Positions 20,963 through 31,542 of a DNA stretch of 35,564 nucleotides are shown piece by piece (the stretch's first letter is position 1; every line of letters begins with the position of its first letter). The notes below the pieces were generated by a model. It searched no databases and had not been told where the DNA came from. It worked only from the letters and a program-made list of their open reading frames with translations. The position numbers and the translations under genes were made by a program. Source of the stretch: Candidatus Berkelbacteria bacterium (GTDB lineage: Bacteria > Patescibacteriota > UBA1384 > UBA12157); the NCBI GenBank assembly GCA_037127955.1, contig JBAXXI010000005.1, positions 1 to 35,564 of the forward strand. Direction: 5' to 3'.

Positions 20963-22165
20963 TTACTTCGAAACTTCAAACCAAGTAGTTTTACCCGCCT
21001 TAACAGTCACTGGAGAACCCGACAAATCAATTTCTTGGTTTTGATCGGCAATTGTCTTATCGCCAATAGAAATTGCATTCTGCTCTAGTAAGCGGCGAAT
21101 ATCACCATTACTGCGCTCACCGGCAAAACAAACCTTCAATATTTCCATGATTGTGTCTTTGTCTTTGCCAATTTGAACTTTTGGAATATCAGTTGGAGTT
21201 TGTTTTTGACTAAAAGTTTTAATAAACCAATCTTTTTCGGCTTCGGCTTCGTCTTTTGAATAAAACATTTCGACAATAGTTTCGGCTAAAATCATTTTGA
21301 TATCGCGGGGATTAGCGCCACTTTTAAGTTGTTTTTCGTATTCGGCAATTTTATCCATTTCAACTCGAGTCACATGAATAAAATAGTCCATGATCAAATT
21401 GTCAGGAATACTCATAAGTTTCCCAAACATATCACGAGCTGAATCTGTTAAATTGATAGTATTACCCCAACTTGAACTCATTTTACGACCATCTGTACCT
21501 GGCAAAATACTCGTCATGACGAAATCTTGTGGCTCTTGACCATAATGAGCCTGTAAAGCTCTACCCGACAAAAGATTAAATCTCTGATCAGTTCCACCAA
21601 GCTCAACATCAGCTTTAACCGCCACCGAATCATAACCCTGCATTAACGGGTACAAAACTTCGCGAAGCGAAATATGTTTGCCGGCATCCAAGCGCTTTTT
21701 GATATTTTCACGTGCAATAAAATCAGAAATTGAAAAAATATTGGCCTGTTCGGTAATCTCTTTATACCCAAGTTTAGAAAGCCATTCTGAATTATTACGA
21801 ACTTCAACCTGGTCAAGATCCAAAATTTTACCAGCTTGAGCCACATAACTCTTCATATTTTCCTGAACGATTTCTTCTGAAAGCATCGGTCTTTCGCTAT
21901 CTTTATCAGAAGTATCACCAATAATCCCAGTAAAATCACCGATTAAAAAAACCACTTTATGGCCCAATTTCTGAAAATCGCGAAGCTTAAAAAGACAAAC
22001 GGCACGACCAAGATGAATATTCGGGCTGGTTGGATCAATACCTAATTTAATCCGAAGCTGTTTACCAGAACCCAAGGCCTTTTCTAAATGCTCACGATTT
22101 ATCACCTCGGTAACACCACGGGTTAAAAGTTCTTCGATTGCTTTTTTATCAGTATTAATCAACAT
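20963..22165 (-). CDS. tyrS: Tyrosine--tRNA ligase (housekeeping copy)
   Basis: IKLGIDPT, HLGR, GDFT, YPLMQGYD, GGTDQRFN, KMSSS, C-terminal S4-like domain. Confidence 0.97.
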   Translation of the reverse strand: MLINTDKKAIEELLTRGVTEVINREHLEKALGSGKQLRIKLGIDPTSPNIHLGRAVCLFKLRDFQKLGHKVVFLIGDFTGIIGDTSDKDSERPMLSEEIVQENMKSYVAQAGKILDLDQVEVRNNSEWLSKLGYKEITEQANIFSISDFIARENIKKRLDAGKHISLREVLYPLMQGYDSVAVKADVELGGTDQRFNLLSGRALQAHYGQEPQDFVMTSILPGTDGRKMSSSWGNTINLTDSARDMFGKLMSIPDNLIMDYFIHVTRVEMDKIAEYEKQLKSGANPRDIKMILAETIVEMFYSKDEAEAEKDWFIKTFSQKQTPTDIPKVQIGKDKDTIMEILKVCFAGERSNGDIRRLLEQNAISIGDKTIADQNQEIDLSGSPVTVKAGKTTWFEVSK

Positions 22166-22333: not shown

Positions 22334-22762
22334 ATGATTCAAAGAATCGACAGAACACTACGCAATGTGAATCCTGGTTTAACCGGAACTCACAGCAACA
22401 TCCATGGCGACGCTTCAAACATCTGGGGAGACGCTACCAATATTATTGGTGATGTTACCAATATTTGCGGCGATGTCACCAATATTCGTGGCGTTGTGAC
22501 AGAAATCAAAGGTGATGTCACTAATTTAACTGGAGACACTTCAAGTATCCGTGGCCTGGTCACAAATATTTACGGTAACCCAGGAAAATTACGCGGCAAT
22601 GTCACCGAACTTATTGGCAATGTCACAAATATATCTGGAACCATTACAAAAATATTTGGTGATGTGTCAGATATCGAAGGGTGTATCACTTTTATTGAAG
22701 GCGATGCTACCGGGGTATTTGGTAAAGTTGATGATTTGGTCGGCCAGGAAATCAAAGTCTGA
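22334..22762 (+). CDS. Heptapeptide-repeat (IxGDVTN) protein, probable beta-solenoid
   Basis: About 17 tandem [IL]xG[DN][VAT][TS]x units; TTGACA...TATAAA promoter, AAGGGGG SD and own terminator. Confidence 0.8.
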   Translation: MIQRIDRTLRNVNPGLTGTHSNIHGDASNIWGDATNIIGDVTNICGDVTNIRGVVTEIKGDVTNLTGDTSSIRGLVTNIYGNPGKLRGNVTELIGNVTNISGTITKIFGDVSDIEGCITFIEGDATGVFGKVDDLVGQEIKV

Positions 22763-22878: not shown

Positions 22879-23718
22879 ATGAAAATCGGTTGTCTCGGAC
22901 CTGCCGGAACTTTTTCCGAAGAAGCGGCTATAAAATATTACAAAACTGAGAAAAATTTAATTTTTTTCTCAAGTAATGAATCTGTCATTGAAGCACTTCA
23001 TCTTCAAGATGTTGATCAAGCGTTTGTTGCGATTGAAAATTCGATTGAAGGCCCGGTCAATGTAGTGGTCGACACAATCCAAAAATATCCTGAACTCCAC
23101 ATTACTGGCGAATACGTTTTGCCAATCTGTCAGGAAATTATGGCTTTTCAATACATTGTTTTAAAAAACATTAAAACCATTGTTTCGCACCCTCAGGCGT
23201 TAGCTCAATGTAGAAATTTTATCAAAAATGAGCTACCAAACGCTGTTATCGAAGAAGCAACCAGTACAACCAAAGCGATTGAAATGATCAAAAATCAAAA
23301 ATTTGACGTTTTAACTACAGCTGCGATTGGATCACCTCGAGCCAAAACCGTATATGGATTAAAAACTCTTTGGCCATGCGCTAATGACTCGAAAGATAAT
23401 TCGACTCGCTTTATTGCCGTTAATCGAACAGCCAAATTAAGACGAACGGGCGATGATCGAACATCTATCAGTTTTACTTGCGACAAAGACGAACCAGGAT
23501 CGCTTTCGAGAGTCCTGGAAGTCTTTAGCGTCTTGGATATCAATATGCTAAAAATCGAATCCAGACCGATTAAAAAAAATCTCGGCGACTACCTCTTCCT
23601 AATAGACCTTAATGGTCACTGTAATAACGCCAAAATCAAATTAGCCTTAGAAACCATTAAAAAAAGAACTGTTGATTTAAGAATTTTAGGTTCTTATCCT
23701 AAATTCAAACCCAAATAA
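22879..23718 (+). CDS. pheA: Prephenate dehydratase with ACT domain
   Basis: LGPAGTFSEEA, IENSIEG, SHPQALAQC, NSTRF, PGSL, INMLKIESRP, LGSYP. Confidence 0.95.
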   Translation: MKIGCLGPAGTFSEEAAIKYYKTEKNLIFFSSNESVIEALHLQDVDQAFVAIENSIEGPVNVVVDTIQKYPELHITGEYVLPICQEIMAFQYIVLKNIKTIVSHPQALAQCRNFIKNELPNAVIEEATSTTKAIEMIKNQKFDVLTTAAIGSPRAKTVYGLKTLWPCANDSKDNSTRFIAVNRTAKLRRTGDDRTSISFTCDKDEPGSLSRVLEVFSVLDINMLKIESRPIKKNLGDYLFLIDLNGHCNNAKIKLALETIKKRTVDLRILGSYPKFKPK

Positions 23719-23753: not shown

Positions 23754-23840
23754 TGGTGCTGAGAGAGAGATTCGAACTTTCGTAGGCACAAGGCCGCCTG
23801 ATTTACAGTCAGGTGCGTTTGACCGCTCCGCCATCTCAGC
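23754..23840 (-). tRNA. tRNA-Tyr (GTA)
   Basis: Acceptor GCTGAGA/TCTCAGC-A-CCA; D arm GCG..GG..CGC; anticodon arm CCTGA-CTGTAAA-TCAGG; long variable arm; T loop TTCGAAT. Confidence 0.95.
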
Positions 23841-23883: not shown

Positions 23884-23910
23884 AAAAAGCCTCAGGTAAA
23901 ACCTGAGGCT
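23884..23910 (-). terminator. Intrinsic terminator ending the tyrS2 cluster
   Basis: AAAA-AGCCTCAGGT-aaa-ACCTGAGGCT. Confidence 0.85.
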
Positions 23911-23921
23911 AAACAAAAGCA

Positions 23922-24614
23922 CTAAATCAAATTAACAAAATTCTGGAAAATCGTCCGACTACACTCTTCGCGATAAGATTCAAAACCACGACCTATCTCC
24001 TGATCAAAAGATAATCCTTCCTCTTTAAGTTTTTCTTTCATAAGTTCAAAGATTTTTTGCGCCTTAAGAGGATGAATTTCAATATGAGATTGAACAGCCC
24101 AAACTGGCTTATCTTTCATTTTAAAGATTTCGGCCATATTGTTAGACGTACTGGCTAATAAAATGGCCCCTGGCGGCAAAGCTGCAACCTTATCTTGATG
24201 ATACTCGAAAAACGTCATCGCGTCGGGGCAGTTAGCCAATAGAGGATCGTTTTTGCCAGCCAAACTTAATTCAATCTGGTACCATCCTCTTTGCCAAGCT
24301 TGATTAAAAGCTAAGCATCCACCAAAGAGATGTCCGAGTATCTGACAACCAAGACAAACACCAAGAGTTGGTCTATCGTCAGACAACCAACTGTAAATGA
24401 AATCCATCTCCTGACGAAACCCTGATTCGCGCGAATGAATAATTTCTATCGCATTCATCGGTCCACCAGCTATAACTAAACCATCAAAATCACCTTTCGG
24501 CCGATCTTCGAGGTAAGCAGGCCAAACAATCGGTCGCACCCCAATATCACCAATGAATCTATCGATATTTTCAGCACGGCCTGGAGCATGTTCGATAATT
24601 AATATTTTTTTCAT
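23922..24614 (-). CDS. Stand-alone class I glutamine amidotransferase / gamma-glutamyl hydrolase-like protein
   Basis: IAGGP, nucleophile elbow LGVCLGCQ, HQD, QSHIE (Cys-His-Glu triad). Confidence 0.9.
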   Translation of the reverse strand: MKKILIIEHAPGRAENIDRFIGDIGVRPIVWPAYLEDRPKGDFDGLVIAGGPMNAIEIIHSRESGFRQEMDFIYSWLSDDRPTLGVCLGCQILGHLFGGCLAFNQAWQRGWYQIELSLAGKNDPLLANCPDAMTFFEYHQDKVAALPPGAILLASTSNNMAEIFKMKDKPVWAVQSHIEIHPLKAQKIFELMKEKLKEEGLSFDQEIGRGFESYREECSRTIFQNFVNLI

Positions 24615-24615
24615 A

Positions 24616-25905
24616 TTAACCCCCTAAATTCCAATCTGGAGCTTTGCCGCTCTTTTTTTTGTAAATACGAGCGTAAGAAGCATTATTCTTTAGTTGAATC
24701 TGAATACGATTTCCAGACTCATCAGAACGAATTTTTCTATATTCAGCCTGAGGATTGATAATTCTAAAAGAATTAATTTTACCCCAAATAATATTCACAC
24801 CAAGCCCACTGCCTGTCATCGGCAAAGATTGACCATTTTCAGCATTAAACTGAAAACGTTCGGTGATAAAATGTTTTTCACCATCAAACCAATTGGTAGA
24901 TGGCTCCCACCCATCAGATGCCAAATTAGCAGTATGCAAAACTGAGGCAGCTTGTTGATCATAAACTCGACCAATCGCAGACGGGAAAGTCCCACCAACC
25001 ATCGATTCAGTCTTAATAATCTGATCCCAATTTGCAGACTCAATCAATTTGGCTTTAGCAATTCCGCCAATCTTTTGAATCTTAAAATTTAACCAAATAT
25101 TTTTTCCCAAACAAAGCTTTGCATCGGCTTCAGTCACAAATGATTCATCAGCAATGACTGGAATATTTCCAAACATTTTCAAATTAACCGCAGCTAAACC
25201 CAATGCATCAATACCTTCATTCGCAGAAATTGGCTGTTCGGCCCAACACAAACCAGAAAGAGTAGATCGAGAATTACACAGTTTGTTCAAAAACTGAATA
25301 AACTCATCAAAACTGTAACTACCATTAAAATCTACCGCGTAACGCGATCTGGTTTCGGCGACTAAAGACTCCATGGTATTAATCATGGCCACATCTGAAT
25401 CGATATCGACACCAGTTTTAATCTTTGGCACAGCCATCTTGCTAATCACCTCTTTAGCTTTTGCAATCGTTTGATCTATAGGCAAGAAAGGTATGCTGGA
25501 CAGTACCACTCCAGAAGAGCGTACCTGGCCATAAATATCAATTATAGACAATTGATGAACTTTACCATAAAGATCGTCAATAGCCATATTGAAAGCCGCC
25601 AAAGCCGCTGGAAACTCACCGATCTTTTCTTCGACACAGGCCAACATTTTGACTCGATCATCAACTAACCAGCCCTCAAAATTAAACTGACAAAGCGACC
25701 AATAAATATCCCAAGCATCGTAAGACGAAAATGGAAAATCTATACTGGCTTCACCCACACCTTCAAAAATTTTACCACCATCATCAGCAATCAATTTCAG
25801 GAACACTCTGGGCAAAGTTGTTAAAGTGCCGAAACCCAAATTAAACGGGTTTGACAAGTTAATTGCCACCATGATGATTTTTACATCAATGATTTTTGCT
25901 GCCAT
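24616..25905 (-). CDS. Enolase-superfamily (muconate cycloisomerase / dipeptide epimerase-like) enzyme
   Basis: GVGEA, AAFNMAIDDL, KIK, VDFN, EQP, ADES, NFKIQKIGG; ATG 25905 after AGGGGG. Confidence 0.88.
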   Translation of the reverse strand: MAAKIIDVKIIMVAINLSNPFNLGFGTLTTLPRVFLKLIADDGGKIFEGVGEASIDFPFSSYDAWDIYWSLCQFNFEGWLVDDRVKMLACVEEKIGEFPAALAAFNMAIDDLYGKVHQLSIIDIYGQVRSSGVVLSSIPFLPIDQTIAKAKEVISKMAVPKIKTGVDIDSDVAMINTMESLVAETRSRYAVDFNGSYSFDEFIQFLNKLCNSRSTLSGLCWAEQPISANEGIDALGLAAVNLKMFGNIPVIADESFVTEADAKLCLGKNIWLNFKIQKIGGIAKAKLIESANWDQIIKTESMVGGTFPSAIGRVYDQQAASVLHTANLASDGWEPSTNWFDGEKHFITERFQFNAENGQSLPMTGSGLGVNIIWGKINSFRIINPQAEYRKIRSDESGNRIQIQLKNNASYARIYKKKSGKAPDWNLGG

Positions 25906-25927
25906 TTTTATACCCCCTATTTTGTAT

Positions 25928-25978
25928 AAAAAAACTGCAATAGTTAACAGGTAGTCTCCCACCCTTAGCTATTGCAGT
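25928..25978 (-). terminator. Long intra-operon hairpin with GAGA tetraloop and U tract
   Basis: ACUGCAAUAGCUAA..GGUGG-GAGA-CUACC..UUAACUAUUGCAGU-UUUUUU on the minus strand. Confidence 0.65.
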
Positions 25979-25995
25979 AACAGATCGTGATCGAT

Positions 25996-26892
25996 TTATG
26001 GTTGACAAACAAGATTGATAATTCGAGAGATTTTATCCTCAAGCGAATTAGTATCCTCAATGCGACCATAAGTTGTCTCGTAGAGACGAACAATACTGGC
26101 CAAATATTTCTTGGCACCACCCAAGGTTTTATCCTGCAAATCCACTTCGGCCTTCAACATCTTTTCCTTAACTGGTTCATCATACTTTAAAAGTAGACGA
26201 TTTTCCCCAGGGATGGAAATATATGGTGAAGCTTTCGGACGATTTTTATCAAATGTCCGACCAGCCTTTAAGTAGAAAAATGAAACTGGCACATCAGAGA
26301 GTCGACGTAATTCTTGATCGAAAAGTCGTTCATCATTCCCAACCGGAGTTTCTCCAGATTGAGTAATCCAACCAATCTTTAAAACCATATTACGCATCTC
26401 ATTGAAATAAAGAATATCAGCCAATTCTCTCTTCACATATTCATGAAGAGTAGTTCTTTCGCTGGTCCATGATAAATGTTTTTGATACTCTGGTGTCTGA
26501 TCATATTCTGAAGACAAAATAACATGAAATTTCTCTAACTTTAATTTCTTTGCTACATGCTCCAGAACACTTTTAGTCTCGCGTGCGAGATGATCAACGT
26601 CCTCTGGTGTACAAAAATCATTACTCTTGGCATGAGTGTCGGCAATCACATGATAAATAGCATCTAAATTTAATAATTTTCTAAACTTTTCTGCTACTAA
26701 AATCATACCCAAAACATCGAATGGCAAACCAACTGACAAATATTTTGGCGTACAAAGACCAGTACCATAATAAATACTGCCTTTTTGTGCATCCACAATA
26801 CCTGGCAAAAGTTGAGCTACCGAAGGGTTCGGTTCGAGCAACGGCTCATTCATAACCGAATTTCTAACTGTCTCAATTTGTACTTTATCCAT
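25996..26892 (-). CDS. Hypothetical protein resembling a degenerate class Ic (TyrRS/TrpRS) catalytic domain
   Basis: Ordered motifs IYYGTG, IADTHA, LSSEY, YVKRELAD, GNDER, KASPY; no HIGH; ATG 26892 after AAGGGG. Confidence 0.55.
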   Translation of the reverse strand: MDKVQIETVRNSVMNEPLLEPNPSVAQLLPGIVDAQKGSIYYGTGLCTPKYLSVGLPFDVLGMILVAEKFRKLLNLDAIYHVIADTHAKSNDFCTPEDVDHLARETKSVLEHVAKKLKLEKFHVILSSEYDQTPEYQKHLSWTSERTTLHEYVKRELADILYFNEMRNMVLKIGWITQSGETPVGNDERLFDQELRRLSDVPVSFFYLKAGRTFDKNRPKASPYISIPGENRLLLKYDEPVKEKMLKAEVDLQDKTLGGAKKYLASIVRLYETTYGRIEDTNSLEDKISRIINLVCQP

Positions 26893-26905: not shown

Positions 26906-28312
26906 TTATATACAAGCATTTTTAAATATTTGAATCAGCACATCTTTTCGTGAGCCAATACTATTATCGACTGAAATAGTTTTTAGAAACAGTTCAATTG
27001 CATTTGATCGACATTGATTATATATTTTTCTGGATATAAACCCCGGGAAATCAAATTCCTTTGGATCTAACCCAAACTTCAATAAACCGATAGACGCTCT
27101 TTCAATTTCTAAATCTAAAAGTTTATGCGCTACTTCAGTCTTCAAATTACCATTTTTATCACGACAATGCAACCGAGCAAAAAGGCCATAATTCATAGCC
27201 TGTATCTTGTCATCAACAACAATATCGAAAGGTAAAAGCTCTTCATGATTTTGTTGCGACCACAATAATCTACCAAGGTAGAACATTAACATGGCCGCGT
27301 CATCCTCAAGTGTTGGTTGCATTGGCAGTGCCCGAAACTCAACAATCAAGATATTTTTGCCATCTCGAAGAAATTTTAACCTTGCATCTCGCCAATTTAA
27401 ACCTATAGCAACATCAAAGGCATGCTCTCTGACAACAGGATCCTGACCGATAATAAAAGGATGCGCCAATAATTGGTCAAAATAATCATATACATCTTTA
27501 TAATAAGCCTTTGGCATTCCGATTCTTGTTAATAAGCCATCTCCAACTTCCCGTGTTGTTCTAACATCATGACTAATTTGCCAGGCTGGCAAACGGATAT
27601 CTGCTATCCCGGTCATTTTATAGTCAAGGAACATCGCATTCGTACCGAAAGCAGTCAATAGTGGCGAAAGCATCAAGGAGCGGTTAAGCTTATCTATCGC
27701 GTCTTTAATGTGCAAACAATCAATATTGAAATGTACAGCATTAAAAAGACTGATACAAGATGGATCGGCCACGTCGACTATTTCTTCTAAACCAAATGTA
27801 GTGTCTAACGGATGTCGTCGATTTCTTCTATGGAAATCCATACTTAACTCGTATTTAAAACACCCTTTAGTCACGGCCACTTCAGAAAGAGGTACAAACG
27901 GGTTGCTACCAGATCTCAAGACGCGGGAACCAGACTGATCTGCCAAACGGCCCAACAAGCTCTCTTTAAGACGATAATCGTCAATTAAGAGATTTAACTC
28001 TTTCCCTAAAAGATTAACTGGCCCTGTCCATAATTCAATTTGCGCGGCGCCCAACTCTTTATCAAAAATCGATGGGTCCTGGGCAATAATAGAATCTCTG
28101 ACAGATTGATCGGCCTGCGAATAAGAAGAAGTTAGTAAAGAATACTCGCTCTCCATACCCACTTTGTAAACACCTGGTTTGGCCACAAAATCGTCTAAAC
28201 TCAAACTGATACGCTTAGCTTCAGCAATAAAAGTTTGTTGCATTTCTAATTCAAAAGGAGAATTAAATCTACTCTGAACCATGTTCATGTTTGGTTTATA
28301 ACCCTTTTTCAT
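26906..28312 (-). CDS. Glutamate--cysteine ligase (GCS2)-family carboxylate-amine ligase
   Basis: KVGMESEY, ELGAAQIEL, AVHFNI, NWRDARLK, VEFRALPMQPT; ATG 28312 after AGGGGG. Confidence 0.82.
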   Translation of the reverse strand: MKKGYKPNMNMVQSRFNSPFELEMQQTFIAEAKRISLSLDDFVAKPGVYKVGMESEYSLLTSSYSQADQSVRDSIIAQDPSIFDKELGAAQIELWTGPVNLLGKELNLLIDDYRLKESLLGRLADQSGSRVLRSGSNPFVPLSEVAVTKGCFKYELSMDFHRRNRRHPLDTTFGLEEIVDVADPSCISLFNAVHFNIDCLHIKDAIDKLNRSLMLSPLLTAFGTNAMFLDYKMTGIADIRLPAWQISHDVRTTREVGDGLLTRIGMPKAYYKDVYDYFDQLLAHPFIIGQDPVVREHAFDVAIGLNWRDARLKFLRDGKNILIVEFRALPMQPTLEDDAAMLMFYLGRLLWSQQNHEELLPFDIVVDDKIQAMNYGLFARLHCRDKNGNLKTEVAHKLLDLEIERASIGLLKFGLDPKEFDFPGFISRKIYNQCRSNAIELFLKTISVDNSIGSRKDVLIQIFKNACI

Positions 28313-28322
28313 AATGTTCCCC

Positions 28323-29627
28323 CTACGAACACATTGTGATTTGAACAAATTGCCGCTTACCTACACGTAAAACAAAAGTTTTACTTTGCGGAAATAATGA
28401 AGAAACTTCGGTAATCTTTGAAGTTTCCTTTTCAACGACCACCTTAACAGAACCGGATTCAATTTGTCTTTTGGCCTCACTTCTTGTCTTGGCGCAACCA
28501 GATAAAGTCAGAATGTCCACCCAGTCCTTCACATTATTCATGTCAATTTCTAAGACGGCCATATCTTCTGGTAAATGTTTTTTTGAAAATAATTCAATAA
28601 AACTATTTTCAGCCTCGACAGCAATCTCATGAGATCCGGCAATCATAGTCACGATCACTCTCGCGAGCAAACGTTTCACTAACATTGGGTTAACCGATCC
28701 GGAATTCATAAAATCAGAAATTTTAAGCCATTCCTCATTTGTGATATCAGTCAATAATTTAAAGTATTCCTCCATAATCGCGTCCGGTATAGACATAATC
28801 TTACCGAAAATTTCAGATGGAGAGTCAGTCAAAGCAATAAAATTGCCTGCACTTTTACTCATTTTTTGACCATTACCATTTGTACCTTGTAAGATTGGTG
28901 TTGTAATACCAATCTGCGGTTCCTTGCCAGCGCTATGCGTAATCCTTTTAACATCCATAAAATTTAATAATTGATCGTTTCCGCCAAGTTCAATTTCTGA
29001 TTCAAGTACACACGAATCAATACCCATAAGAGTAGAATATAATAACTCTGCTCGAGTCACAGATTCACGGTTACGAAAATCATCACGTTGCATAGCCGAA
29101 CTAACAGTTTGTTTACTAAGTATTTGTAAAAAATCAAATAACTTATAATTTTCTAACCACTCACTATTATAACGGATCTCAGCTTTATTCAAATCAATTA
29201 AAAATTTTATCTGGTCGCAATAGCTTTCCATGTTAGACATGATTTCATCCTGTGTTAACACTGGTCTATTCATAATCCGACCGGTTGGATCGCCAATAGA
29301 AGCGGTAAAATCACCGATTAGAAAAATTATATGATGACCCATCTGCTGAAAACGTCTTAATAGAATCACCGGAACAATATGCCCCAGATGAATCGCGCTA
29401 CCAGTTGGATCTATACCATATTTTACTCTGATCGGTCTACCTGTTTCCTTAGAACGCAAAAGTTTGTGCGCCAATCTCTCTTCGTCAGTAATATTTGCGA
29501 TTTTTGGCCGCAAAAGTTCAAACTGCTGTTGAGCGTCAAAACCACTCAAGTCTACAAGAGTCTGAGCCAACCTTGTCTCTAATTTGTTCAAAAAATCTTG
29601 AACCGTTGAAAGAATATTTGTATTCAT
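28323..29627 (-). CDS. tyrS: Second tyrosine--tRNA ligase-like protein (TyrRS2)
   Basis: VKYGIDPT, HLGH, GDFTASIGDPTGR, YSTLMGID, GGNDQ, KMSKS, S4-like C-terminus ending VGKRQF. Confidence 0.9.
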   Translation of the reverse strand: MNTNILSTVQDFLNKLETRLAQTLVDLSGFDAQQQFELLRPKIANITDEERLAHKLLRSKETGRPIRVKYGIDPTGSAIHLGHIVPVILLRRFQQMGHHIIFLIGDFTASIGDPTGRIMNRPVLTQDEIMSNMESYCDQIKFLIDLNKAEIRYNSEWLENYKLFDFLQILSKQTVSSAMQRDDFRNRESVTRAELLYSTLMGIDSCVLESEIELGGNDQLLNFMDVKRITHSAGKEPQIGITTPILQGTNGNGQKMSKSAGNFIALTDSPSEIFGKIMSIPDAIMEEYFKLLTDITNEEWLKISDFMNSGSVNPMLVKRLLARVIVTMIAGSHEIAVEAENSFIELFSKKHLPEDMAVLEIDMNNVKDWVDILTLSGCAKTRSEAKRQIESGSVKVVVEKETSKITEVSSLFPQSKTFVLRVGKRQFVQITMCS

Positions 29628-29742: not shown

Positions 29743-29771
29743 TTGACAAAATCTATAAAAAGGTTTTTAAT
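29743..29771 (+). promoter_or_regulatory. Sigma70-type promoter for the His-leader operon
   Basis: TTGACA (29743-29748), 17 bp, TTTAAT (29766-29771); a divergent TTGACA lies at 29724-29719 on the minus strand. Confidence 0.6.
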
Positions 29772-29804
29772 TATAAATAGATATTAAATATTATTAATAA
29801 AATT

Positions 29805-30049: not shown

Positions 30050-30742
30050 ATGAAACAAGACCTATTCTCGCGTATCAAAGAACTGAGTTGTGTAACAAAA
30101 ATCAGTAATTTTTTCCCTCAAGAAAATCAAATTTTTGATTTTATCTTTTTTGTCTGTCCCAGATTCACTGGTAATGGCCTAAAAATAAATAAGCATAAAA
30201 CCGGATTTACCGCTAATTACAGGGAAGGAATTAGTGAATATTCAAAGGTAAGATTCCAAATGGTTAAAAATTTTATGGACCAGATTAACACAATTGGCAT
30301 TAACTACACCGTCAATACTATTTTTGCCGCTGCCGATTCTATATTACTATTCCCTATTCCAGCCGAACCTCCTTCTACACCCTCGGAAAACGATATTCCA
30401 GGTGATTTTAAACTGATTTCAAACCTTAATATTTATAGAAATCATTTTCAAACATTTGGCCAAATCTACAGACAAGAGCCTTGGAAAAATACACCAAACT
30501 GGGCATTAAAAATTGAATACGATAGACTTACCGAAATTATACCCAGTCACACTCTAGAAGAAATCAAGGAAGATTTTATTGCCAGATGTTTTGCCGGCTT
30601 TGCCCTTGACGGAATTATTTTAAAAAAAGGTCTATTTGGCACCAACCCAATTATTTTAGGAGTTGAAAGTAAAGGTGTCAGTGTACTTCAAAACTCTGCC
30701 CTTGAGCGAAAAGATTGGATTCCGGTCATCGATCTCTGCTAA
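30050..30742 (+). CDS. Hypothetical protein, alpha/beta Rossmann-like pattern
   Basis: AAGGAG SD; motifs FIFFVCPRF, TIFAAAD, GFALDG, IPVIDL. Confidence 0.75.
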   Translation: MKQDLFSRIKELSCVTKISNFFPQENQIFDFIFFVCPRFTGNGLKINKHKTGFTANYREGISEYSKVRFQMVKNFMDQINTIGINYTVNTIFAAADSILLFPIPAEPPSTPSENDIPGDFKLISNLNIYRNHFQTFGQIYRQEPWKNTPNWALKIEYDRLTEIIPSHTLEEIKEDFIARCFAGFALDGIILKKGLFGTNPIILGVESKGVSVLQNSALERKDWIPVIDLC

Positions 30743-30795
30743 TTTATGGGGAGGTTCGCCTCCCCATATTCTTCAAATTATTTAAAAGGAAAATT

Positions 30796-31542
30796 ATGAC
30801 TAAAAAATTAATTAAACAACTTAATGAAATCAATGATCAACAAAATGGACAAATAAATATTTTGTTTGATTGGGAGTGTCCACCAAGATTTATAGATTAT
30901 AAAAATAAACGAGAATTTGTTAATTTTGATGTGGACTTAAATAAAATATTTGCTCAACGAAAAATTGATAATTTTACAGAAATTCCGCGAACCATAATCA
31001 ATAAAAAAACCGATCTAGAAGTACTTAGGTTGATCAAAGATAATCGAATAAAATTTCAATATTATAAATTCATTGCGGATACAAATCTTGAATTAGTTCA
31101 AACAAAAAATAAGACACAAGCTAAACAAAAATTTTATGAATTTAAAAAAGTCCTAGAACAGAAAACTCTAAAATATCCTGTCAAAATTTCATTTTGGCTT
31201 TTTTCAGACTTTTTAAAAACAAAAAAATTATTTAAAAAATATAAAGAAATCTATAAAGTGTGGGTAGATAAAATTGAAAATGAAACAAGATACCAAAAAA
31301 TCTGGCAAAAACAGATTGAAAAAACCAAAAATCACATGGGGCTAAAAGATTCGTTAAAAATAAAAGAAATTGCCAAACGCACGATTGCTTCATATGCTGC
31401 CGAAGGTGCTATTTTTGAAATTTTAGAAACAAAAAATGAAAACTATATTTGGCTAAATTCTGCCGAAACAGACCAACAATCCATTAATACAACAAACTTA
31501 GCCCGCAAAGAAAAAATGATAATAATTTTTCCAAAAAATTAA
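30796..31542 (+). CDS. Hypothetical protein, possible distant paralogue of the upstream gene
   Basis: ATG 30796 after AAAGGA; motifs ILFDWECPPRF, KFIADTN, SYAAEG, MIIIFP. Confidence 0.75.
   Translation: MTKKLIKQLNEINDQQNGQINILFDWECPPRFIDYKNKREFVNFDVDLNKIFAQRKIDNFTEIPRTIINKKTDLEVLRLIKDNRIKFQYYKFIADTNLELVQTKNKTQAKQKFYEFKKVLEQKTLKYPVKISFWLFSDFLKTKKLFKKYKEIYKVWVDKIENETRYQKIWQKQIEKTKNHMGLKDSLKIKEIAKRTIASYAAEGAIFEILETKNENYIWLNSAETDQQSINTTNLARKEKMIIIFPKN

Follow-up and report, generated by a model that had tools for sequence, protein, structure and literature searches.

The DNA considered here is the 35,564-nucleotide contig JBAXXI010000005.1 of a Candidatus Berkelbacteria bacterium (assembly GCA_037127955.1), referred to below as the window, and the subject is a minus-strand gene for a protein that resembles a tyrosyl-tRNA synthetase (TyrRS) and lacks the HIGH signature. 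This protein, termed the pseudo-TyrRS, is encoded by the third gene of a co-directional run of five, in which neighbours are separated by gaps of at most 35 nt or share short overlaps (Table 1). In order, the run encodes the second TyrRS of the window (TyrRS2), a GCS2-like ligase, the pseudo-TyrRS, an enolase-superfamily protein and a GATase/C26-like protein. If translation began at an upstream ATG at position 26919 the pseudo-TyrRS would have 307 residues and its gene would overlap the preceding one by 14 nt; residue numbers given here follow the 298-residue database form, P0001.

Table 1. Genes and other features in and around the pseudo-TyrRS gene cluster of the window.
Feature	Position	Strand	Remarks
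TyrRS1 (tyrS)	20963-22165	-	motifs HLGR and KMSSS; in the tree nearest to the sole TyrRS of related genomes
Heptad-repeat open reading frame	22334-22762	+	142 aa; between tyrS and pheA
Prephenate dehydratase with ACT domain	22879..23718	+	PDT 3.4e-51, NF008865 2.2e-83
tRNA-Tyr (GTA)	23754..23840	-	ARAGORN; Rfam 58.2 bits; bacterial type, long variable arm, CCA encoded
Promoter-like site before tRNA-Tyr	23878-23851	-	consensus match only
Terminator-like hairpin	23888..23910	-	10 pairs and a T run, directly after the GATase gene; consensus match only
Class-I glutamine amidotransferase/peptidase C26-like protein	23922..24614	-	GATase 2.2e-17, Peptidase_C26 6.2e-7, NF045546 1.4e-5
Enolase-superfamily racemase/epimerase, N-acylamino-acid racemase/OSBS/dipeptide-epimerase group	24616..25962	-	MR_MLE_C 8e-15
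Pseudo-TyrRS	25996..26892	-	298 aa from ATG at 26892; database form P0001
GCS2/YbdK-like carboxylate-amine ligase, distant	26906..28348	-	Pfam GCS2 E 0.003, TIGR02050 E 0.0016
TyrRS2	28323..29627	-	first gene of the operon; complete bacterial-type TyrRS with HLGH, KMSKS and S4-like C-terminus
Promoter-like site upstream of TyrRS2	29770..29797	-	10/12 consensus positions; consensus match only
Two overlapping open reading frames	30050-31542	+	230 and 275 aa

No Pfam or NCBIfam family was matched by the pseudo-TyrRS above cut-off. Below it, the protein matched Pfam tRNA-synt_1b (PF00579; E 0.003 and 17.3 bits, under the cut-off of 21.1) and, over residues 70-161, the NCBIfam model for archaeal-type tyrosine-tRNA ligase (NF006330; E 2e-6 and 27.1 bits against a threshold of 220). 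A search of the PDB with the single sequence gave chance matches only (CENP-S, E 0.33), and a profile of 42 family sequences gave five matches at E<=10, all of which are archaeal or eukaryal TyrRS and the best of which (E 0.12) is not significant alone. Among the 30 protein-atlas clusters nearest to the pseudo-TyrRS, 29 carry PF00579. The AlphaFold2 model (pLDDT 95.0, pTM 0.93) shows the topology of class Ic, with a catalytic domain of the Rossmann/HUP type and a CP1, and the best 50 Foldseek matches listed for it are all TyrRS (best E 9e-9; TM 0.63-0.65). Taken together, the sequence and fold matches indicate that the resemblance to TyrRS is more than chance.

Structural alignment with VIA-align placed archaeal and eukaryal TyrRS closest to the model. 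The best match was Aeropyrum pernix TyrRS (2cya; Z 20.8, root-mean-square deviation 3.4, 261 residues aligned), with mimivirus TyrRS at 20.7 and human TyrRS at 19.1, compared with 13-18 for tryptophanyl-tRNA synthetases (TrpRS) and about 15 for bacterial TyrRS. An hhalign comparison of the family with 25 bacterial-type TyrRS covered only residues 35-156 (probability 5%, E 0.007) and did not map the pocket. Model residues 4-298 align with residues 4-344 of 2cya, and this span includes the C-terminal helical domain of TyrRS, the counterpart of which is found at residues 241-296. The whole fold is common to the pseudo-TyrRS and the archaeal/eukaryal enzymes (2cya, mimivirus 2j5b, human mini-TyrRS 1n3l and Methanocaldococcus jannaschii TyrRS; Z 19-21), comprising the N-terminal helices, the Rossmann core, a short CP1, the KMSKS-loop region and the C-terminal helical domain, although no more than 12-18% of the sequence is identical and Pfam scores it below threshold. 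A preliminary description of this DNA, made from its letters alone, had proposed a degenerate class Ic protein of the TyrRS kind, which is borne out by fold and motifs; its view of a catalytic domain with little room for an anticodon domain does not agree with the model, in which the pseudo-TyrRS is a full-length archaeal/eukaryal-type TyrRS fold, neither a bare catalytic domain nor a cyclodipeptide synthase (CDPS).

The six motifs listed in that description, IYYGTG, IADTHA, LSSEY, YVKRELAD, GNDER and KASPY, were all found in class Ic order in the minus-strand reading frame, and the motifs with which they had been compared (YPLMQGYD, GTDQR and NSEW) were located in the tyrS of the window. The motif order equals that of archaeal/eukaryal TyrRS, with which the Y-x-G-T of beta1 and the A-D-x-H-A strand align by hidden Markov model (HMM). 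HIGH, reported as absent, is indeed replaced: D59-V-L-G62-M63 occupies its site, and in the HMM alignment to 2cyb G62-M63 stand opposite the G-H of H-x-G-H. Conservation was counted in 242 family members of 255-370 aa. Position 63 is Met in 179, Leu in 29 and Phe in 14 of these. At the KMSKS position a loop of R-P-K-A-S-P-Y is found instead, with Lys (158) or Arg (55) at K220 and without a second Lys; the E-x-R-I-L-L that follows P-K-A-S-P-Y aligns by HMM with the EESKIDLL that follows KMSSS in human TyrRS, which by extension would place KASPY at the KMSKS position (human K222-MSSS) to within 2-3 residues.

Conservation in the family is focused on what is probably the polar pocket where TyrRS binds tyrosyl-adenylate, while no position of the C-terminal domain is conserved above about 80%. 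G43, G45, Y152, K172, W175, P223, Y224 and R232 are present in 242/242 members, P57 and E188 in 241, D59 and D85 in 239, H87 in 237, D187 in 235, D192 in 234 and D159 in 230. The layout of the tyrosine pocket is putatively recognized in Y41, Y152-x3-E156-x2-D159 and G-x-D187-E188-R, where Y152/E156/D159 were mapped to Y-x3-Q-x2-D and D187-E188-R189 to G-x-D-Q-R by secondary-structure order and motif spacing. By the same spacing, the pseudo-TyrRS has Glu at both positions at which M. jannaschii TyrRS has a Gln; these two Gln we take to be the binders of the alpha-amino group. Further differences from archaeal/eukaryal TyrRS are the new near-invariant residues K172, W175, D192 and R232 and an insert of about 10 residues before G-x-D-E-R. 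At position 156 the 242 proteins divide into 190 with Glu and 52 with Gln; the window protein has Glu there, as does each of the 49 proteins read from the loci. At position 41, 173 have Tyr and 52 have Phe.

The Glu of YxxxE had led to the earlier suggestion of a CDPS-like protein. Like the CDPSs AlbC, Rv2275 and YvmC, the pseudo-TyrRS is derived from class Ic and lacks the ATP motifs, the window protein has Glu in place of the TyrRS Gln, and a use of aminoacyl-tRNA is proposed for it below. The catalytic Glu of CDPSs, Glu182 in AlbC, would correspond by motif to E156. The catalytic Ser is Ser37 in AlbC and Ser88 in Rv2275, according to PMC12945691. CDPSs are, however, single-domain enzymes with this Ser, whereas the pseudo-TyrRS has a C-terminal domain and no such conserved nucleophile: between residues 38 and 63 no Ser, Thr or Cys is invariant (T44 160/242, T48 175/242, S53 182/242), and none is conserved in the beta1-helix loop. 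The likeness in structure is also much lower than to TyrRS, with matches at Z 9.1-13.2 nearly all confined to model residues ~13-214 and covering at most about 190 residues. From the alignments, neither of the two CDPS hallmarks, the catalytic Ser and a Glu that is always present, seems to be a feature of this family, E156 being Gln in 52 members, and a likeness beyond common ancestry is not upheld. That the protein is a true CDPS, working by covalent ping-pong on two Tyr-tRNA to yield cyclo(Tyr-Tyr) or something related, is accordingly very improbable, in spite of the common ancestry, the Yxxx[E] motif, the missing HIGH and the presence of CDPSs among the structural matches.

It might also be asked whether the pseudo-TyrRS is still a ligase that activates tyrosine, D-tyrosine or a derivative with ATP and either charges tRNA-Tyr or makes an amide, using non-canonical motifs (the G-T-G loop, K172, R212, R218, K220 and R232). 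The survival of a loop at the KMSKS position, with P223-Y224 invariant, speaks for this, as does the situation in the Saccharimonadales-like order to which genome G002 belongs. The housekeeping TyrRS there has T/Q/A-I/V/A-G-N at the HIGH site in 12/12 genomes (L077-L088) and keeps KFGKS/T, and it is the single strong TyrRS match in 33 of the 40 genomes sampled from that order (unpublished G438 among them). On the other hand, a near-invariant Asp, D59, heads the helix with which HIGH binds the ATP phosphates, the second HIGH His is replaced by Met or Leu, two Gln-to-Glu changes are found in the pocket, and a ligase would be redundant with the intact TyrRS that almost always lies alongside. Activity of this kind is therefore considered improbable.

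Relatives number 156 when clustered at 90%; clustering at 50% gives 530 representatives, of which 421 reach E<=1e-10. All bear the source name 'hypothetical protein', and none has a precomputed Pfam domain. The named sources are Patescibacteria, namely Saccharimonadales, Uhr-, Kerfeld- and Kaiserbacteria. Three metagenome-assembled genomes bearing the gene cluster (L001, L003 and L015) are labelled Gammaproteobacteria or Pseudomonadales, labels which may be binning or naming errors. Within the phylum sample the gene is present in 3 of 401 genomes (that of the window, G232 and G293), and it was not found in a genome of the same genus (G395) or of the same family (G276). The distribution is thus accessory and patchy. 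A scan of viral contigs for relatives gave 42 pattern matches and no confirmed one, so there is no sign of a phage origin. A literature search found no description of the family or of the gene cluster; it is an undescribed family derived from aminoacyl-tRNA synthetases (aaRS), the function of which is here predicted from sequence.

The surroundings of the gene were compared in 66 loci, made up of 47 metagenomic loci, 17 taken from genomes, one from G232 and that of the window. Grouping them by 97% nucleotide identity in the pseudo-TyrRS gene leaves 53. Neighbours were counted to a distance of 7 kb in those non-redundant loci, 25 in number, that have 5 kb or more of flank on each side. A TyrRS was found in 22 of these and a racemase-like gene in 19, followed by GATase, a protein of unassigned family termed protein X and an M15 peptidase (10 each), tRNA-Tyr (9), the GCS2-like ligase (8), and prephenate dehydratase and YchF (7 each). 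With the flank relaxed to at least 1.5 kb (n=34), TyrRS was found in 31 and the racemase-like gene in 28. The exceptions among the 25 are L014 and L067, without any listed partner, and L048, with the racemase only; TyrRS is present and the racemase absent in L012, L039, L069 and L071. Two arrangements of this cluster, referred to below as the island, were distinguished. Variant A, that of the window, has TyrRS, GCS2-like ligase, pseudo-TyrRS, racemase-like enzyme and GATase/C26-like protein, and variant B, which is Saccharimonadia-like, has protein X, racemase-like enzyme, M15 peptidase, pseudo-TyrRS, TyrRS and tRNA-Tyr. A YchF-type GTPase flanks both variants in different lineages (L004, L008, L009, L016, L010, L013, L053-L055, L058, L060-L062), and a prephenate dehydratase with an ACT domain adjoins the island also in L008, L009, L026, L030, L034, L039, L043 and L044.

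The tie to a TyrRS that had been suspected from the window alone is well supported by these counts and by natural fusions. Among family representatives longer than 550 aa, four of five are fused to a complete TyrRS domain; the fifth (P0123) carries a GNAT domain (PF13480). The order is TyrRS first in P0121, L005 and L006 and pseudo-TyrRS first in P0122, P0156 and P0235, and the fusions of L005 and L006 are unbroken reading frames of 756-761 aa with tRNA-Tyr directly after. Where the two genes are unfused they may be as close as in L008 and L004, with gaps of 4 nt to 18 nt. The pseudo-TyrRS is hence tightly coupled genetically, and in places fused physically, to an intact TyrRS. Identity of the GNAT domain of P0123 with protein X was considered and rejected (hhalign probability 0.1%).

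TyrRS2 itself is a clear member of its family (Pfam 2.1e-61, TIGR00234 7e-89). In a tree of 25 TyrRS rows, from which none was omitted (L014 and L017 have no TyrRS), 14 TyrRS adjacent to a pseudo-TyrRS form one clade (91/92). Nine of these 14 form a further clade (100/99), starred in the tree, to which L001 (of variant B), seven loci of variant A and the window contribute; it is separate from the single TyrRS found in relatives that lack the pseudo-TyrRS. L001, despite its label, thus groups with the linked TyrRS of Patescibacteria. The TyrRS of L003, L015 and L012 lie outside the clade of 14, those of L003 and L015 being basal. H-x-G-H and KMSKS-type motifs are kept in all adjacent TyrRS. All nine members of the starred clade, TyrRS2 included, have Met in place of the Gln of Y-P-x-x-Q-x-Y-D, and L015 has Val; in Bacillus stearothermophilus TyrRS this Gln is presumably the binder of the alpha-amino group.

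Copy numbers of TyrRS and tRNA-Tyr were compared on the assumption that a third, shorter PF00579 match in each genome is TrpRS. The genomes G000-G004, which carry the pseudo-TyrRS, each have two TyrRS (the second of G001 being cut by a contig end) and two tRNA-Tyr. Two other carriers differ, as G232 has the cluster TyrRS only with one tRNA-Tyr, and G293 the cluster TyrRS with one tRNA-Tyr. G395, G276 and G034, which lack the pseudo-TyrRS, have one TyrRS and, by the pattern used, 0-1 tRNA-Tyr. The tRNA-Tyr of the window is the second of its genome and clearly differs in sequence from the other copy, on contig C11; an A51:C63 mismatch in the T-stem was seen only in the cluster tRNA-Tyr of the window. 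An orthogonal tRNA-Tyr was rejected as a candidate, since the cluster tRNAs look like ordinary bacterial tRNA-Tyr. The tRNA was the sole match in an Rfam scan of the window, in which no T-box was found.

From fold, motifs and gene coupling, it is very likely that the pseudo-TyrRS is a paralogue of archaeal/eukaryal-type TyrRS that has kept the whole fold and the layout of the tyrosine pocket, has lost HIGH and works with a dedicated TyrRS, often with an extra tRNA-Tyr. Its role is probably to act on tRNA-Tyr that is already charged, and not to carry out the charging.

A partner of this kind need not be an enzyme. Degenerate synthetase copies joined to, or working with, a functional enzyme are known in the pseudo-dimeric TyrRS of kinetoplastids and in HisZ, and the pseudo-TyrRS could be a tyrosine- or tRNA-binding subunit paired with TyrRS like the former, or a sensor like the latter that regulates TyrRS or an island enzyme by tyrosine or uncharged tRNA-Tyr. 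The fusions, the very tight gene spacing and the retention of the full TyrRS architecture would fit such a role, and the TyrRS of Leishmania major (3p0h), which we take to be pseudo-dimeric, is among the top structural matches (Z 18.6). The halves here would however be of different TyrRS types, bacterial and archaeal/eukaryal-like. Moreover, the best-conserved residues are polar or charged and lie in the region of the TyrRS active-site pocket; such residues are normally lost in the degenerate half of a pseudo-dimer, and the own C-terminal domain and dimer of a bacterial-type TyrRS should suffice. A non-catalytic partner is for these reasons regarded as unlikely.

The accessory enzymes of the island provide a hint of its chemistry. 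In the racemase-like family K180, K182, D211, E242, D272 and K294 are invariant in 13 sequences, so that all the residues expected of the MLE subgroup are present: the K-x-K, the three metal-binding positions D/E/D and the second catalytic Lys. The profile of this family matched 1wue best in the PDB (8e-47), an enzyme of the o-succinylbenzoate synthase/N-succinylamino-acid racemase (OSBS/NSAR) type, followed by N-acylamino acid racemases (NAAAR; e.g. 1sja 1.5e-38, range to 1e-36), and the L-Ala-D/L-Glu epimerase ranked behind (3e-34). An eight-sequence profile of the GCS2-like ligase matched plant glutamate-cysteine ligase (2gwc/6gmo, E 1.5e-5). The GATase/C26-like protein, which matches NF045546, the model of gamma-glutamyl-CDP-amidate hydrolase, is by sequence a candidate gamma-glutamyl hydrolase. 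Protein X belongs to a family of about 400 aa with 78 hypothetical proteins, many homologues of which have longest contigs equal in size to those of pseudo-TyrRS homologues. Its model (pLDDT 90.8) has a GNAT fold at residues ~45-230, with Z of about 10 to many acetyltransferases; FemX (9.6) and an aminoacyl-tRNA-dependent peptide synthase (8.8) are among the near-tied matches. The M15 protein (Pfam 1e-8 to 1e-9) has VanX-like motifs, SHK..AID..EDWH, and no hydrophobic segment. VanX is D-specific.

The two variants may thus contain the same trio of functions, an acylating enzyme (the GCS2-like ligase or the GNAT-fold protein), an enzyme like N-acylamino-acid racemase and a hydrolase (GATase/C26 or the VanX-like M15), which would form an acylate-racemise-deacylate route making or processing a D-amino-acid partner, plausibly D-tyrosine or a dipeptide with a D-residue. 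The same logic is known from the N-succinylamino-acid racemase pathway of Geobacillus, in which a GNAT acyltransferase, NSAR and a deacylase act together. The island trio differs from this pathway in its acyl donors and hydrolases, and, unlike that of Geobacillus, is tied to a TyrRS, a pseudo-TyrRS and tRNA-Tyr.

How, then, might the pseudo-TyrRS act on charged tRNA? An aminoacyl-transferase or amide ligase had been suggested in the preliminary description, and this is still a sensible conjecture; the racemase trio and the tRNA-Tyr gene, which that description did not take into account, are added by the gene context. A tentative preference is given to direct transfer of the tyrosyl group, by a paralogue that has ceased to activate tyrosine, from the Tyr-tRNA-Tyr of the partner TyrRS to an amine acceptor. 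The Tyr-tRNA-Tyr made by the partner would be held in the old product site, and the tyrosyl group would be passed directly to an amine in the remodelled ATP site, where D59, D85, H87, K172, W175, D187, E188, D192, P223-Y224 and R232 are near-invariant. The product would be a tyrosyl amide or a dipeptide, formed without the covalent serine intermediate of CDPSs, and the island could then be a small tRNA-dependent pathway to D/L-tyrosine peptides. Two considerations favour transfer. Where the nucleotide was once bound, a large number of charged and aromatic residues are invariant, which hints at a second ligand of a specific kind, and the characterised aaRS-derived enzymes that use aminoacyl-tRNA as acyl donor, CDPS, the IleRS-like SbzA and the AlaRS-like AcmF, are all transferases in the account given by PMC12945691. 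In SbzA and AcmF a full synthetase architecture is reused for aminoacyl transfer to an acceptor in the former adenylate site (PMC12945691). Like these, the pseudo-TyrRS is an extra synthetase-like copy in a gene cluster, its transfer activity being only proposed. SbzA keeps HYGH, a KMSKS-like motif and weak charging according to PMC12945691, whereas the pseudo-TyrRS is without HIGH and has a separate, intact TyrRS.

Several observations weigh against this reading or against parts of it. The residue equivalences to TyrRS at positions 150-235 depend on secondary-structure order and motif spacing. The replacement of E156 by Gln and of Y41 by Phe in 52/242 members suggests that these two residues bind and are not essential for catalysis, and the HIGH-less sole TyrRS of the Saccharimonadales-like genomes means that loss of both HIGH histidines is by itself no proof of lost activation. 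The cluster copy and the second copy of tRNA-Tyr match exactly in both G002 and G004 along the 38-39 nt that were compared, indicating a duplicate that provides extra dosage and not an orthogonal species. Finally, 6 of the 25 well-flanked loci have no racemase, and in G293 the locus consists only of tRNA-Tyr, pseudo-TyrRS and TyrRS, with no match of the X or racemase type elsewhere in the genome; the core function therefore does not depend on the trio.

The main rival to tyrosyl transfer is a proofreading deacylase, which is doubtful though to be taken seriously. Using the product site of TyrRS, the pseudo-TyrRS would bind and hydrolyse tyrosyl-tRNA-Tyr that has been wrongly made, D-Tyr-tRNA-Tyr in particular, as an editing domain in cis (fused) or in trans for a synthetase that has none. 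The trio would make or remove D-tyrosine, the extra TyrRS and tRNA-Tyr would protect translation, and the island would be a production-and-immunity or an immunity-only cassette. TyrRS discriminates poorly against D-Tyr, and the racemase trio with its VanX-like hydrolase points to D-residues. Minimal loci with tRNA-Tyr, pseudo-TyrRS and TyrRS (L069/L015, L071 and the 1.5-kb contig L070) would need no acceptor, and fusion to an editing domain is a usual architecture of aaRS, here found in both orders. D-Tyr-tRNA deacylase (DTD; PF02580) was not found in G000, G232 or G293 and was found in 35 of the 401 phylum genomes; its absence nevertheless does not discriminate, with about 91% of the phylum sample lacking it, and a complementary distribution of pseudo-TyrRS and DTD was rejected as uninformative (366/401 genomes without a DTD match). 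It is not obvious why a hydrolase would need so many invariant charged residues where ATP was formerly bound, a trans-editing factor would not need a TyrRS of its own, and we know of no case in which a class I catalytic core has turned deacylase.

A further arrangement, which seems quite unlikely, is that the island is a D-aminoacyl-tRNA system in which the trio would make D-tyrosine, the dedicated TyrRS would load it on the spare tRNA-Tyr, and the pseudo-TyrRS would be chirality-selective or would hand D-Tyr on. This leans on the Met for Gln in the starred clade, which is nearly all of the ligase/GATase variant. If true, the pseudo-TyrRS would be the first synthetase core turned chirality-selective for D-Tyr-tRNA, or a donor of D-Tyr to a cellular acceptor.

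A second hypothetical family, of 305 proteins, bears on this. In genome G293 another minus-strand locus (L025:1977-6883 on G293:C3) contains, in this order, tRNA-Trp, a reading frame of 284-308 aa, a TrpRS-like gene (393 aa), a 160-aa reading frame and a TrpRS of 780 aa that bears two tRNA_edit domains of the YbaK type and, at its C-terminus, a tRNA_bind domain. The 284-308-aa reading frame belongs to this second family, which aligned with the pseudo-TyrRS family over 267 columns (hhalign probability 87%, E 3.7e-6); the two families also agree in motif order. The sister family was found in one of the 401 genomes, and the link to Trp comes from this one locus, the arrangement of which mirrors the tRNA-Tyr/pseudo-TyrRS/TyrRS arrangement of the same genome. 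Its position beside a TrpRS with two editing domains is in favour of the deacylase, and its presence beside tRNA-Trp and TrpRS would extend the D-aminoacyl-tRNA principle to tryptophan.

New uses of aminoacyl-tRNA have come to light time and again through paralogues of synthetases, among them CDPS, HisZ, SbzA and AcmF, and the pseudo-TyrRS family is of that kind. It sits in the ultra-small genomes of Patescibacteria, which rarely keep spare genes, and the link to a second TyrRS, the duplicated tRNA-Tyr and the racemase set point to D/L-tyrosine chemistry on tRNA. Tyrosyl transfer, if true, would mean a new class of tRNA-dependent peptide-bond enzyme, and a deacylase would mean that chiral proofreading is solved in a new way in a phylum whose sampled genomes seldom show DTD. 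Under either activity the natural TyrRS fusions are a directly testable system.

Some minor features of the window may or may not relate to the island. Promoter-like sites are overall fewer in the window than in shuffled sequence. The reading frame between tyrS and pheA consists of nearly nothing but G-D-x-T-N-I-x heptad repeats, and its Pfam matches are weak and below cut-off. The two overlapping reading frames beyond TyrRS2 had no family match in Pfam or NCBIfam and form a stretch of low G+C (0.32-0.33) immediately upstream of the promoter region of the operon.

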